From Nitrospinota bacterium (GTDB lineage: Bacteria; UBA8248): 49,779 nt of DNA. Position numbers: made by a program. Location: contig JASLZZ010000122.1 in NCBI GenBank assembly GCA_030754595.1, forward strand, positions 1 to 49,779, read 5' to 3'. Of the stretch, positions 9,001 to 12,000 are shown piece by piece (the first letter of the stretch is position 1; each line of letters starts with the position of its first letter).

Positions 9001-12000
9001 TTGAACGGGTAATTTCCGGTGAAGAAATCCAAGGCAAGCCAAACAATAATTACCTTGAAAGAATAGGAGCGACGCAAGGAGTTTGTCGGTTTCACCGACG
9101 AAGATGTGCAACTGCTTATGGAGTATAACCAAATCGCGGAAGTCCACGCGAACGAGGTTGTGGAAAAGTTGTATCAGCACTTCCTGCGATTTGAGGAAAC
9201 AAAAGCCTTCTTCCGGGACGACATGACGCTCCTCCGTGTTACGGACCTTCAGAAAGAGTACTTCCTCGGGCTAACGAAAGGCGACTATGGCGAAGAATAT
9301 TTGGCGAACCGCCTGCGCATTGGAATCCTCCATCAGCAACTTGGCTTGTCGCCCTGCTGGTATATGGGGTCGTATTCGATTTATTTGGAGTTGGTCATTT
9401 CCTTCGTACTGGCAGCTTATGGATCTGACCTTGAGAAAGCGCGGCGAACTCTGGTGGCTTTAGTCAAGATCATCCAGTTGGACCAAGAATTGGCAATGAC
9501 GGCTTATTTATTGTCCCCACTCCCGTAATATTCCTGTTCAAATGGTTTATCAGGCATAAACCAATTCAAGGAATCAAATGGGAAATGTCGGATAGTTTTA
9601 TCGGCGTGGGCCGAATCAGGATGAAACCAGCGGGCCGCCGTACAGGCGGTGCTCGACCATGATTCAAAGATCCATGACGACCTTGAGGCCCGCCCGCTCG
9701 GCGCGGGCCGCGGCTTCCTCGTCGATGACGCCTTTTTGGAGCCAGATCGCCCGCGCCCCGGCGGCGATGGCTTCGTCCACCACCCCGCTCACGAAACGAC
9801 TCCGCCGGAAAACGTTCACCATCTCGGGGGGCTCGGGCAGCGCGGAGAGCCGGGGATAGCACCGCTCGCCGAGGAGTTCATCGTGACCGGGATTGACGGG
9901 AACAATCTCGTAGCCCGCCTGTTGCATGTAGACGCTCACGTAATGGCTGGGCCGGTGTTCCTTGGGCGAGAGACCCACCACGGCGATGCGCCGGAACTCC
10001 CGGAGCACCTGCCGGACGGCCCCTGAATCCTGAAAATCGGCGCCGCTCATTCGCTTATTTCTGCCTCCGGGGTCCGGTGGTCGCTTACTTCCCACTCCCT
10101 CAAATGGTCCCGGAGCGATTCGGGGCTGTCGGCCGCGCCTAAAAACGCGGCCACGGCCTCCTCGTCGGTATCGTAGAGCGGATAGCACGACGCCGGGGCC
10201 GCCCCGCCGGGCAGGTGGACCACCGCGTCCACCATGAACCCCGGTATATTCGTCCGCTCGGGTTTGTCCTCGAAAAACTTCGTCTCGACGATGCGCTCGG
10301 CGGTGAGGATGACGCCCTCGGAGGCCCGGGAGAGGAGCACATCCTCGAACGGGCCGCCGTCGATCCGCGCATTGCCGGCCGCGTCGGCGTGCTGAACGTG
10401 GACCACCGCCCAGTCGGGCCGGATTTTGGGGATCATGTAAACGCTCTTCCCCGTGTAGGGGTCCTCGGCCTGGAGGAACCCCGAGCTCGCCGGGGTGTCC
10501 GAGCCGTCGAACCCCGAGACCGGCTGGCTCGGAAGCCCATAGGCCGAGGCGCGCAGGCCCGCGATCACGCTGTAGCAGGCGTGCTCCACCACCCGGATTT
10601 CCCCGCTCTCGACCCCGCGCCGGTAGGAGGGCGCCATGCCGAAGAGGTTTTCGTAGCCGATGTAGCCCGCCCGCACCTCGGCCACCGCCCCCGCCGCGCA
10701 GAGGAGATCGATCTCGTAGGCCCCCGCCGTTTTAATCATGATGAGATTCCGGCGGCCCTGACGCGCAAGCTCGCGGGCGAAGGCCGACGGGGTGCGCGAG
10801 AGCGAATTGCCGCCCAGCGCGATCATCTGACCGTCCCGGACGAGGCCGCCGGCCTCTGAGAGAGATATCAGCTTGCTCACATTTCCTCCTGTCGCGCCGG
10901 CCGGGCTAGCAGCCCAGGCTGGGCTAGCAACCCCGCCCAGTTAGCGCTCCACCCGGCGAAGCGCGGCGAACTCCGAGTAACGCACCCCCTCGGGATCGAT
11001 CTCGGCGAGGGCGGAGAGTTCATCCCCCGTAGGCGGGATTGTCACGGGTATTTCAGCACCCAAATCGAGCGGAAAACCCGTCCGCCCGGCCACCTCTTCC
11101 ACCGAAACGCCCGGATGAACGCTCCCCAGCTCAAGACCCTCATCGCGCATCTCCATCACGGCCAGCGGAGTGACCACCCGCGCCAGGTTGCCCGACTGGG
11201 TGACGAAATCCACCTTCTCGACAAAAGTGCGCCGGTCGTGCACCACCCGCCATATCACGATCCGCCGAGCCTGCTCCATGATGACCGACCCGCCCCCGCC
11301 TCCGGGCAGGCGAACCTTTGGGGCGGACGGCTCGCCGATGTAGCTCATGTTCACGCGGCCCGCCTTGTCGATCTGTGCGCCGCCCAGGTACATGAGATCG
11401 ACCCCGCCCCGCGCGAAAAGATCGTAGGCGTCGGCGTTCGAGAAGATCGCCGCCGCCCCCTGGCACAGTGCCGGATCGTTCGTGCTGAAGGGCAGCCGCT
11501 CGGGCCTCGGGTCCACAGAGCCGGCCACCTCGATGAGAACGCTCCCCGGCGCATGCAGCTTTTTTGCGAGAAAAATCGCCACCATCGGAAGCGGGGAGTT
11601 CACGCCGTGAAAGACGCGCTCGCCCTCGCGCAGCTCCCGGGCCAGGCAGACGGCCATTTGATCCGCCGCATCGCGCGCGGCCTGAATTTCGCTTTCCGTT
11701 TTCAAGGTCATTTGATCATACCTGTAGATACGTCTCGGCTTCGGCGAGATATTCGGCGAGACCGTCCGCCGTTCGGGAAACCTCCATGTAGCGGCGCATC
11801 CTCGCCTCGTCCACTCCGTAGGCCGGCGAGCAGCTGCAGGGCGCGGCCCCCCCCGGCGCATGAGCGACGGCGGCCACCAGGAAGCCGGGAATGGCCGTCA
11901 TCTCGGGCTCCTCTCTAAAGCGCTCGGCGGGCGCCAATTTCTCGGCGGTGACGATGACCCCCTTCGCCGCGCGCATCATTTCGATATCGAAATATCGCGG

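Follow-up and report, generated by a model that had tools for sequence, protein, structure and literature searches.

A probable selenocysteine-containing CoA-binding protein encoded next to CoA-transferase-family genes in a Nitrospinota bacterium

A gene for a small CoA-binding protein of the Pfam family CoA_binding_2 (PF13380) in a Nitrospinota bacterium contains an in-frame TGA at the position of the invariant cysteine of the family, and its product is very probably a selenocysteine (Sec)-containing protein that represents a real, so far uncatalogued selenoprotein family. The window, that is, the whole stretch of DNA analyzed here, comprises 49,779 nucleotides. Under the explanation that we favor, the UGA at codon 129 would be decoded as Sec by the SelA/SelB/tRNA-Sec system of the organism, aided by a small hairpin that starts 14 nt downstream, within the coding sequence, and the resulting protein would form a selenium-sulfur adduct with CoA in the service of the transferases encoded upstream. 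As a whole, this explanation is assigned a probability of about 0.8; the proposed chemistry, taken separately, is far more tentative than the presence of Sec. What is observed directly is the structure of the gene, its conservation, the Cys/Sec column, the fold, the presence of the Sec machinery and the synteny.

The reading frame across the TGA codon

The elements of the gene, all on the minus strand, are as follows.

9616..10050, minus strand: CoA_binding_2 gene, 144-aa YccU/YneT-type single-domain CoA-binding protein (by translation through the TGA at codon 129)
10050-10048, minus strand: start codon ATG (from the sequence)
10047..10050, minus strand: ATGA overlap of this start with the stop of the upstream CoA-transferase-family gene (from inspection of the sequence and its open reading frames)
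9664..9666 (9666-9664), minus strand: in-frame TGA, codon 129, probably read as U129 (from conservation and the Cys-containing homologues)
9631..9663, minus strand: the 11 codons after the TGA, I-M-V-E-H-R-L-Y-G-G-P, corresponding to the C-terminal helix of the family (protein-identical in five species)
9635..9649, minus strand: core of a candidate bacterial SECIS element, 5-bp stem CCGCC/GGCGG and loop UGUAC (from folding and fit to the consensus)
9616..9618 (9618-9616), minus strand: true stop codon TGA, after a variable tail of 4-5 residues (no similarity past the stop)

The earlier note on this DNA had proposed that the gene, called as a 128-aa protein (g03076), continues through the TGA to give 144 aa, and the same layout was obtained here from the sequence. 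Read-through adds 15 codons past the TGA, which is embedded in the motif V-V-M-D-L-U-I-M-V-E-H. The extended protein matches PF13380 over the complete profile (positions 1-116 of 116; 148.4 bits against a cut-off of 22.8), as had been claimed, compared to positions 1-108 of 116 and 135.1 bits for the 128-aa call, so that read-through gains profile positions 109-116 and 13.3 bits. The extension is short, as the earlier note itself cautioned, and 15 codons by themselves are unremarkable in G+C-rich DNA; that this extension exceeds chance expectation follows from its homology to the C-terminus of the family together with a purely synonymous substitution pattern.

Across five species of the genus, the variable sites in the 11 codons after the TGA are distributed among the three codon positions as 0/0/5, and none of the 5 variable codons changes the amino acid in the TGA frame, whereas in the alternative frames most of these changes would be non-synonymous (4 of 4 in one, 3 of 4 in the other). 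The corresponding distribution in the 110 codons upstream of the TGA is 28/20/72, with 47 codons that vary only synonymously and 33 with amino acid changes. Past residue 140, similarity collapses to 17-39 of 60 nt, the tails that precede the final stop diverge (LVSS, LVSS, LVLS, EGESP and SDFS), and the final stop itself is TGA in four species and TAG in one; the similarity among the species thus stops where the conserved part of the reading frame stops. Substitutions downstream of the TGA are synonymous in one specific frame, which supports read-through.

These observations bear directly on the possibility that the TGA is a genuine stop codon, in which case the product would be a 128-residue protein without the last helix, and the conserved 33 nt would be an RNA or DNA element that encodes no protein. 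Both automated gene calls and public annotation do end at the TGA, in 18 database entries, and the hairpin could have some other purpose. This interpretation is nonetheless highly unlikely: all the variable sites in the 33 nt are synonymous third positions of the TGA frame, the peptide encoded after the TGA matches the C-terminus of the family, truncation would remove the invariant Cys column and a conserved His, and the end of similarity coincides with that of the conserved part of the frame. Furthermore, a role of the hairpin as a transcription terminator was ruled out since there is no terminator-like site at 9635..9649.

Decay of the gene, which could be considered redundant beside the Cys-type paralogue (50-55% identity) that is present in each of the five genomes of the genus, is improbable in the extreme. 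No frameshifts or scattered stops were detected in this gene in the five species, only the single TGA at the same place; synonymous-only codons outnumber those with amino acid changes upstream of it; the operon position and the start/stop overlap are retained; and 18 additional database clusters are cut at this very position.

The cysteine column of the family and the range of the Sec form

The AlphaFold2 model of the protein (pLDDT 92.3) consists of alternating strands and helices and reproduces the Rossmann-type fold of the solved structures PH1109 and TT1466, including the C-terminal helix. The residue encoded by the TGA is located between the last strand (residues 123-126, V-V-M-D) and the last helix (residues 130-137, I-M-V-E-H). 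In Foldseek comparisons, the TMq values are 0.89-0.90 for PH1109 (2d59/2d5a) and 0.83 for TT1466 (1iuk), and the sequence match to PH1109 (2d59) has an E-value of 2e-29. More generally, the structures of PH1109, TT1466, Klebsiella 2duw and 1y81 resemble the protein in sequence (E-values from 2e-29 to 2.6e-17) and in fold (TMq 0.73-0.90), and their alignments run past the D/N-R-C column into the last helix (N-R-C-M-M-R-E-H in PH1109, D-R-C-P in 2duw); unlike the protein described here, all of them contain Cys. The CoA domain of succinyl-CoA synthetase alpha and of the NDP-forming acyl-CoA synthetases shares the same domain fold (TMq 0.56-0.69), but in these cases it belongs to large multi-domain enzymes.

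A word-indexed database search retrieved 5547 relatives at E <= 1e-10. In an alignment of 52 sequences, the column of residue 129 (C129) is one of 16 invariant columns; the remaining invariant positions (A23, G26, S28, R33, S35, G46, P51, V52, P54, F81, R82, A94, W103, Q105 and A117) are all present in the query. The N-terminal motif A-V-V-G-x-S-x4-R-x-S is present as well, and in the C-terminal motif D-[RL]-C-x3-[ED]-H the Cys column corresponds to the TGA codon, that is, to the putative Sec, in which selenium replaces the sulfur of Cys; His134 is shared by 90% or more of the aligned sequences. From these features, CoA binding by the protein can be predicted.

Among the best 120 database homologues, 18 (65-95% identity) break off at ..V-M-D-L, 101 show Cys at this position and one (P0022) is misaligned there, in agreement with the counts given previously; thus, the column contains Cys in 101 of the 101 alignable full-length homologues. 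The 18 truncated entries stop exactly before the Sec column, and one of them is named as a CoA-binding protein of 128 aa. All 13 Cys forms from the phylum that were inspected have Cys at the UGA column, and the paralogue in the same genome (g03068) reads V-V-M-D-R-C at this place, as reported before. The proposal that Sec stands in for the Cys of the conserved C-terminal D-R-C motif is accordingly well matched by the composition of this column.

The search of 51 genomes of the phylum yielded 72 matches at E <= 1e-25, of which 5 contain one TGA and 67 contain none; a smaller search of 41 genomes found the TGA in 5 of 50 rows. The carriers are the gene in the window and its orthologues in all four other species of the genus (95, 88, 80 and 78% identity), which reproduces the earlier description of a TGA shared within the genus and missing in more distant matches. 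The same TGA is present in two near-identical metagenome contigs, the sole Sec forms returned by the metagenome scan, and is intact in an independent DNA run. On the phylogenetic tree, the 18 truncated database entries and the 5 genome copies form a single clade that can be explained by one change. At the DNA level, the evidence for the TGA comes from five species of one genus, a caveat of the earlier note that still stands; the truncated clusters with 65-80% identity are known as protein entries.

Apparent Sec forms from another phylum turned out to be spurious. The 401 genomes searched in the phylum to which a MAG labelled Desulfofustis belongs gave 127 matches. Of these, 3 had a TGA inside the match and 3 more had a TAG or TAA; the three TGA-containing matches (in G058, G119 and G114) are Cys forms in which the alignment overran an ordinary terminal TGA. 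A scan of genome contigs with the degenerate DNA motif M-D-L-TGA-I-M-x-[DE]-H recovered only three genomes (G001, G002 and G004), apart from one match (L213) in an unrelated frame that is due to chance.

Selenocysteine decoding and the candidate SECIS element

The genome encodes SelA (551.8 bits), SelB (364.5 bits), SelD and tRNA-Sec (73.6 bits), all above the curated cut-offs, and SelD is itself of the Sec type, with one in-frame TGA. TGA terminates 1631 of the 3844 long frames and is the commonest stop codon, hence it has not been reassigned in this genome. Contigs from an RNA library match the operon identically at 9907-10057, 11029-11180 and 12100-12290, all outside the TGA of the CoA_binding_2 gene, and could be carried-over DNA; a 52-nt piece from such a library at 9671-9722 was rejected as coming from another organism.

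The hairpin CCGCC-TGTAC-GGCGG is located at 9649-9635 on the minus strand, inside the coding sequence. The earlier note placed it 17 nt after the TGA; in fact, the stem begins 14 nt past the last base of the TGA and the loop follows after 19 nt. Its conservation in all five orthologues was confirmed: all 5 species have the same stem despite three synonymous third positions within it, and the loop differs in one (TGTAT). The stem has 5 bp, or 6 bp in one species, and, being invariant among the five species, shows no compensatory changes.

According to the published consensus, a bacterial SECIS element has a loop of 3-9 nt, an upper stem of 4-16 bp, a G in the first two loop positions, a distance of 16-37 nt from the UGA and an energy of at most -7.5 kcal/mol (PMC13188914, Fig. 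2 legend). The hairpin agrees with all four constraints (loop 5 nt, stem 5 bp, spacing 19 nt), folds in every construct tried, and has an energy of -8.1 to -9.2 kcal/mol alone and -12.0 kcal/mol with a lower stem. The loop UGUAC differs from the GG-type loops that follow the TGAs of SelD and of the CoA-transferase gene, and the earlier note considered the lack of GG a defect; since the consensus accepts a G in the second position followed by U, it is not. The folding z-scores (-1.29, 0.14 and -1.08) are unremarkable, and the hairpin is weaker than the typical SECIS elements of this genome. Under a strict criterion, 69 of 1628 ordinary TGA stops (4.2%) have a hairpin of the same quality behind them, a background that is only a rough guide because the strict scan misses the hairpin of SelD itself. 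Given that ordinary stops also pass, the fit to the consensus adds little weight, and a SECIS function of the hairpin is suggested by its sequence and position.

UGA might also be read through without selenium, by near-cognate insertion of Trp or Cys or by a local, SelB-independent recoding. The inserted residue is not decidable from sequence alone, and the modest hairpin would be compatible with such a mechanism, but we consider it very unlikely because the complete Sec system is present and is used by SelD, TGA has not been reassigned, and Cys in the column of all homologues is the classic Sec/Cys pattern. Moreover, the five species have kept TGA rather than TGC or TGT, which argues for an advantage of Sec. 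Sec insertion at codon 129, deduced from this combination of features, hence appears the most plausible reading of the TGA.

Catalogued bacterial selenoproteins share with this gene the in-frame UGA, a SECIS element just downstream and Cys in most homologues; unlike the flavoproteins and thioredoxin-fold proteins among them, the protein described here is a small Rossmann-type CoA-binding domain. A Sec-containing family of FAD-dependent CoA-disulfide reductases (TIGR03385) has already been catalogued (Table 1, PMC13188914). The claim that CoA_binding_2 is not a known selenoprotein family holds in the literature searches and in the 2026 selenoprotein review, in which PF13380, PF02629 and PF01144 have 0 occurrences and are absent from the 119 families of Table 1 (PMC13188914). 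No NCBIfam selenoprotein model matches the protein, which yields only weak matches to acyl-CoA-ligase domains.

The CoA-transferase operon and possible chemistry

Upstream of the CoA_binding_2 gene, the operon contains four genes, all on the minus strand.

10047..13816, minus strand: the four upstream genes of the operon (MFS, A, B, second A)
12620-13816, minus strand: MFS transporter (Pfam)
11716-12525, minus strand: glutaconate-CoA-transferase-family subunit A, with an in-frame TGA at 12222-12220 (Pfam and PDB matches)
10941-11714, minus strand: subunit B of the same family (Pfam and PDB matches)
10047-10880, minus strand: second A-type subunit, with Cys (Pfam and PDB matches)

The PDB matches of the operon proteins are 5mzw, 1poi and 6con. 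Subunit A also appears to carry Sec: in the alignment, it has EHA-U-AS where the second A-type subunit has EHA-C-YS, and a hairpin is present downstream of its TGA. At the sequence level, the TGA, the Cys in the paralogue from the same operon and the hairpin uphold the earlier suggestion that one operon encodes two selenoproteins. CoA-transferase-family genes lie directly upstream of the CoA_binding_2 gene in 5 of 5 species, that is, in all four congeners rather than in three of them as claimed before, and the order of the operon is the same in the congeners and in contigs L045, L101 and L102. The ATGA start/stop overlap is typical of translational coupling. No CoA-transferase neighbors were found at 133 loci of Cys forms from other lineages or at 9 such loci in the phylum, so the link says little about the CoA_binding_2 family in general; for the Sec form, a partnership with the transferases can be proposed from the gene order.

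Operons with several selenoprotein genes (grdA-grdB, prdB-prdC, SAO and Tso) are interpreted as Sec use at the level of a pathway (PMC13188914). The operon described here resembles them in having two apparent selenoprotein genes; unlike in these operons, neither family has been catalogued, and the pathway handles CoA thioesters.

Alternation of Sec and Cys at one position strongly suggests that the residue is catalytic and, in most cases, redox-active, and the presence of Sec at the never-varying Cys of the family would mark this residue as the reactive centre. The closest experimental precedent is YneT of Bacillus subtilis (Q45065), in which CoA was found by LC-MS/MS to be disulfide-linked to Cys126 in the peptide TVIMDLC126IK (PMC8127865). 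YneT belongs to the same family and length class, shares the motif M-D-L-C/U-I and carries CoA on the residue of the Sec column; this correspondence follows from the gapless alignment of a 135-aa YneT orthologue (45% identity), in which Cys126 lies opposite residue 129. Unlike the protein described here, YneT is a Firmicute spore protein with Cys instead of Sec, and the passages on YneT in that source show no CoA-transferase context.

By analogy, Sec129 would take the place of the invariant Cys between the last beta-strand and the C-terminal helix and would be the reactive centre beside the thiol end of bound CoA, to which it could become linked reversibly through a covalent Se-S bond, much as Cys126 of YneT is linked to CoA by a disulfide. 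In this capacity, the protein might serve the glutaconate-CoA-transferase-family enzymes of the adjacent upstream genes as a store, carrier or redox buffer of CoA. This mechanism is tentative and falls somewhat short of even odds; in particular, the CoAlation of YneT was observed in spores and might reflect stress instead of a step in catalysis.

The same selenoprotein could perform a different chemistry, with Sec129 and His134 acting as a nucleophile-base pair that takes an acyl group from bound acyl-CoA to form a selenoester; the protein would then assist the CoA-transferase-family enzymes in acyl transfer or in a thioesterase-like role. The invariant position 129 and the highly conserved His134 are five residues apart, on or near the same helix; the enzymes of the operon act on CoA thioesters, and the CoA_binding_2 gene is translationally coupled to the transferase genes. 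We consider this variant unlikely: the sole chemistry seen at the Sec column is a disulfide to CoA that involves no acyl group (PMC8127865), and the 2026 review expects redox roles for most uncharacterized selenoproteins (PMC13188914).

The Foldseek matches include structures of C123 mutants of succinyl-CoA synthetase, which has a conserved Cys after its CoA domain. This Cys sits near CoA. It was reportedly tried as an acyl acceptor and found to be dispensable, which also counts against acyl transfer.

Returning to the Se-S adduct, a broader and rather doubtful extension of it would be that YccU/YneT proteins are enzymes, not passive CoA binders, in which the invariant Cys or Sec cycles through an S-S or Se-S bond with CoA. 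Such proteins might be dedicated to CoA loading, unloading or repair on thiols (CoAlation/de-CoAlation or CoA delivery), and the selenium version might be wired with a second uncatalogued selenoenzyme, of the glutaconate-CoA-transferase family, into a selenium-dependent CoA-thioester pathway.

If the Sec assignments are correct, the bacterial selenoproteome gains one family, and probably two with the CoA-transferase neighbor; neither would belong to the usual redox proteins of the thioredoxin fold, and both would be connected with central CoA metabolism. The position at which Sec and Cys alternate is the invariant Cys of a family that is very widely distributed in bacteria and archaea, structurally solved and uncharacterized, and this provides a testable hypothesis for its function. 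In addition, the annotation can be corrected for a minimum of 18 database clusters that are cut at the TGA, among them a named NCBI entry.

A need for selenium in the carbon metabolism of an organism common in seawater would be of ecological interest. Seawater metagenomes often contain this organism: among the holders, which come from 12 studies, 17 runs include 90% or more of the words sampled from the window.

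Reading frame beyond the in-frame TGA

The CoA_binding_2 (PF13380) gene of the YccU/YneT type is the last gene of a minus-strand operon, and its start codon overlaps the stop codon of the upstream gene (ATGA).

Operon genes, adjoining genes and candidate hairpin
6983-8725, plus strand: hydantoinase B/oxoprolinase gene, adjoining the operon
9106-9528, plus strand: protoglobin-family gene, converging on the operon end
9649-9635, minus strand: hairpin CCGCC-UGUAC-GGCGG, 19 nt between UGA and loop
10050-9616, minus strand: CoA_binding_2 gene by sequence translation (ATG 10050-10048, in-frame TGA 9666-9664 at codon 129, final TGA 9618-9616)
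10047-10880, minus strand: second A-type subunit
10941-11714, minus strand: subunit B
11716-12525, minus strand: glutaconate-CoA-transferase-family subunit A, in-frame TGA 12222-12220; closest solved relatives 5mzw, 1poi and 6con
12620-13816, minus strand: MFS transporter

Read-through of the TGA gives a product of 144 residues (...K-V-V-M-D-L-U-I-M-V-E-H-R-L-Y-G-G-P-L-V-S-S) that matches the complete PF13380 profile (1-116 of 116, 148.4 bits), compared with positions 1-108 of 116 (135.1 bits) for the 128-residue call. Translation, the full-length Pfam match and the conservation of the TGA confirm the 144-aa CoA-binding protein described in the earlier note. The NCBIfam scan of the product yielded no specific model and only weak matches to the CoA domain of acyl-CoA ligases.

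Among 72 matches from 51 genomes of the phylum (E <= 1e-25), a single internal TGA was found in 5, namely the gene in the window and, as previously claimed, its counterparts in all four other species of the genus (95, 88, 80 and 78% identity); the remaining 67 matches contain none. A search of 41 genomes gave 5 TGA carriers out of 50. The TGA is also kept in two metagenome contigs (99 and 98% identity) and is intact in a contig from an independent DNA run.

Directly after the TGA, the peptide I-M-V-E-H-R-L-Y-G-G-P is shared by all five species, followed by differing tails (LVSS, LVSS, LVLS, EGESP and SDFS) and a final stop (TGA in four, TAG in the fifth). Across the 11 codons 3' of the TGA, variable sites are distributed 0/0/5 by codon position, and each of the five codons concerned keeps its amino acid in the TGA frame; read in the two alternative frames, these substitutions would be non-synonymous for 4 of 4 and 3 of 4 codons. 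The corresponding distribution in the 110 codons 5' of the TGA is 28/20/72, and farther downstream the ungapped identity to the window drops to 17-39 of 60 nt. The exclusively synonymous changes after the TGA, together with the loss of identity downstream, indicate at the sequence level that the frame runs on through the TGA under purifying selection.

Selenocysteine machinery and candidate SECIS element

The genome (3.55 Mb, 138 contigs) carries SelB (364.5 bits) and SelA (551.8 bits), both above the curated cut-offs, tRNA-Sec (73.6 bits; gathering score 47) and a selenophosphate synthetase gene, SelD (G000:C16:24543-25505, locus L181), with one in-frame TGA (K-A-G-G-U-G-S-K), so that the organism is able to insert selenocysteine. 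SelD is itself a selenoprotein. Elsewhere in the genome TGA is an ordinary stop, terminating 1631 of the stop-to-stop frames with 250 codons or more (TAG, 1220; TAA, 993).

The hairpin after the UGA appears in every fold computed, with an energy of -8.1 to -9.2 kcal/mol alone and -12.0 kcal/mol with the lower stem. The bacterial SECIS consensus, as quoted in a 2026 review (PMC13188914, Fig. 2 legend), includes a 3-9 nt loop on an upper stem of 4-16 bp, a G among the first two loop nucleotides, in most cases with G or U next to it on the 3' side, a UGA spacing of 16-37 nt, and an energy <= -7.5 kcal/mol; the hairpin agrees with all four of these conditions. The concern that the loop lacks GG does not apply, given that UGUAC conforms to the consensus. 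The stem is unchanged in the five species despite three synonymous third positions inside it, and one species has the loop UGUAU and a sixth base pair. Folding z-scores are ordinary, no covariation was detected in the stem across the five species, and an equally good hairpin follows 69 of 1628 (4.2%) ordinary TGA stops by a strict measure that misses the hairpin of SelD itself. As support for selenocysteine decoding, this candidate SECIS is weak. The SelD hairpin consists of a GGGUCC/GGACCU stem with the loop GGA, 17 nt after the UGA, and that of the CoA-transferase TGA has 8 bp and the loop GGC, 23 nt downstream (-12.9 kcal/mol). No terminator-like site was called in the region of the CoA_binding_2 hairpin, nor in the 88 nt between the protoglobin-family gene and the stop of the CoA_binding_2 gene.

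Origin and distribution of the probable selenocysteine form

The database alignment reproduced the homologue counts of the earlier note: among the best 120 homologues, the 18 closest (65-95% identity), one of them a 128-aa 'CoA-binding protein [Nitrospinota bacterium]', stop at ...V-M-D-L, directly ahead of the Sec column, 101 have Cys in this column, and one (P0022) is misaligned. When the query was aligned with 51 of the 101 Cys forms of our choice (52 rows), the Sec column was one of 16 invariant columns. Solved structures align across it; PH1109 has N-R-C-M-M-R-E-H and the Klebsiella protein D-R-C-P. All five genomes additionally encode a paralogue with V-[VI]-M-D-R-C-M-K-I-E-H (G000:C121:34365-34775, locus L039, and its equivalents in the other four species; 50-55% identity), which extends the earlier observation of a Cys-type paralogue to the whole genus. 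These paralogues have a longer tail (...C-M-K-I-E-H-G-R-Y-K-G-S-L-Q-W-A-G-M-R-T-G-V-I-T...), which is also present in other genera of the phylum, and no CoA-transferase genes were found within 1.5 kb of them.

In a tree of 137 rows built only from columns before the Sec column (excluding P0022, the duplicate of the query and two unrelated proteins), the 23 Sec or truncated rows form one side of a single branch (SH-aLRT 83; one state change) and nest in a set with 13 Cys forms of the phylum and 7 others (support 95). This topology is consistent with one change from Cys to Sec in a paralogue belonging to this lineage. In 5 of 5 species the Sec form has transferase-family genes immediately upstream, compared with 0 of 9 Cys-form loci in the phylum and 0 of 133 from other lineages; the transferase link therefore sets the Sec clade apart. 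The two A-type subunits share 49% identity; where the first has its TGA, the second has Cys (E-H-A-U-A-S vs E-H-A-C-Y-S). The mechanical ORF of subunit B (10941-11861) starts at 11861, overlapping the preceding gene by ~150 nt; its CoA_trans match starts at residue 68, the ATG at 11714 is 1 nt past the upstream stop, and 11714 is probably the real start.

The Sec form was not detected in 401 genomes of a Desulfobacterota-type phylum (127 matches), where three matches with an internal TGA were rejected because the TGA is the ordinary terminal stop. A DNA motif scan of genome contigs recovered nothing beyond the known congeners except one chance match, an unrelated, stop-ridden frame in a Rhodobacterales-labelled MAG (CAYZAY010000123.1, locus L213) that matches the degenerate motif exactly; the motif alone is not diagnostic. 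Among seawater or marine DNA runs, 17 contain at least 90% of the sampled words of the window; all 20 runs with the whole or part of the window represent 12 studies, and 14 of these runs may include the source sample. Contigs from RNA libraries are identical to the window at 9907-10057, 11029-11180 and 12100-12290. They come from three runs in two studies, with two of the runs sharing a sample; one contig crosses the CoA-transferase TGA and none covers that of the CoA_binding_2 gene, and all could reflect DNA carry-over.

Family status and possible chemistry of residue 129

None of the 119 selenoprotein families and subfamilies in Table 1 of the 2026 review is a CoA-binding or CoA-transferase family, and PF13380, PF02629 and PF01144 do not occur in that paper (PMC13188914). 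Literature searches combining selenocysteine or selenoprotein with CoA binding, or with SECIS families in bacteria, returned nothing relevant, and a preprint on eight new selenoprotein families mentions CoA in other contexts only, which bears out the claim that CoA_binding_2 is not a known selenoprotein family. According to a 2026 database paper, the ten most selenoprotein-rich genomes include MAGs labelled 'Nitrospinota' that belong to GTDB phylum UBA8248. The proposed reading of the TGA as Sec is supported by accepted in-silico criteria, by which the product is very probably (roughly 85%) a selenoprotein of an uncatalogued family. Its main value is as a pointer to the function of the YccU/YneT family, together with the CoA operon and its two apparent selenoproteins.

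The AlphaFold2 model (52-row alignment; mean pLDDT 92.3, pTM 0.86) places residue 129 between a strand (123-126, V-V-M-D) and a helix (130-137). Foldseek matches include PH1109 (2d59 and 2d5a, TMq 0.89-0.90), TT1466, 2duw and 1y81, as well as the CoA domains of NDP-forming acyl-CoA synthetases and succinyl-CoA synthetase alpha. Termination at the TGA would remove the last helix along with both the invariant Cys column and the conserved His.

In a Bacillus spore CoAlation study, CoA-modified peptides derive from four proteins including YneT, a putative CoA-binding protein of 135 aa and unknown function that carries CoA on Cys126 in TVIMDLC126IK (PMC8127865). Scanning genome contigs with the back-translated peptide located an orthologue in Bacillus spizizenii, a 135-residue protein with Cys at 126 that is 45% identical to the Sec protein over 123 residues with 0 gaps, Cys126 being opposite residue 129. 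The sole chemistry known for this column is thus a disulfide to CoA, and by analogy Sec129 and the thiol of bound CoA might reversibly form an Se-S adduct, a proposal that we regard as tentative. The main rival, an acyl-transfer role of a Sec-His pair, appears unlikely; His134 is kept in at least 90% of the rows of the 52-row alignment. For the Se-S adduct, the Sec-containing CoA-disulfide reductase family in the catalogue of the 2026 review provides a precedent for selenium acting on the CoA thiol, and the selenol has a lower pKa and greater nucleophilicity (PMC13188914).
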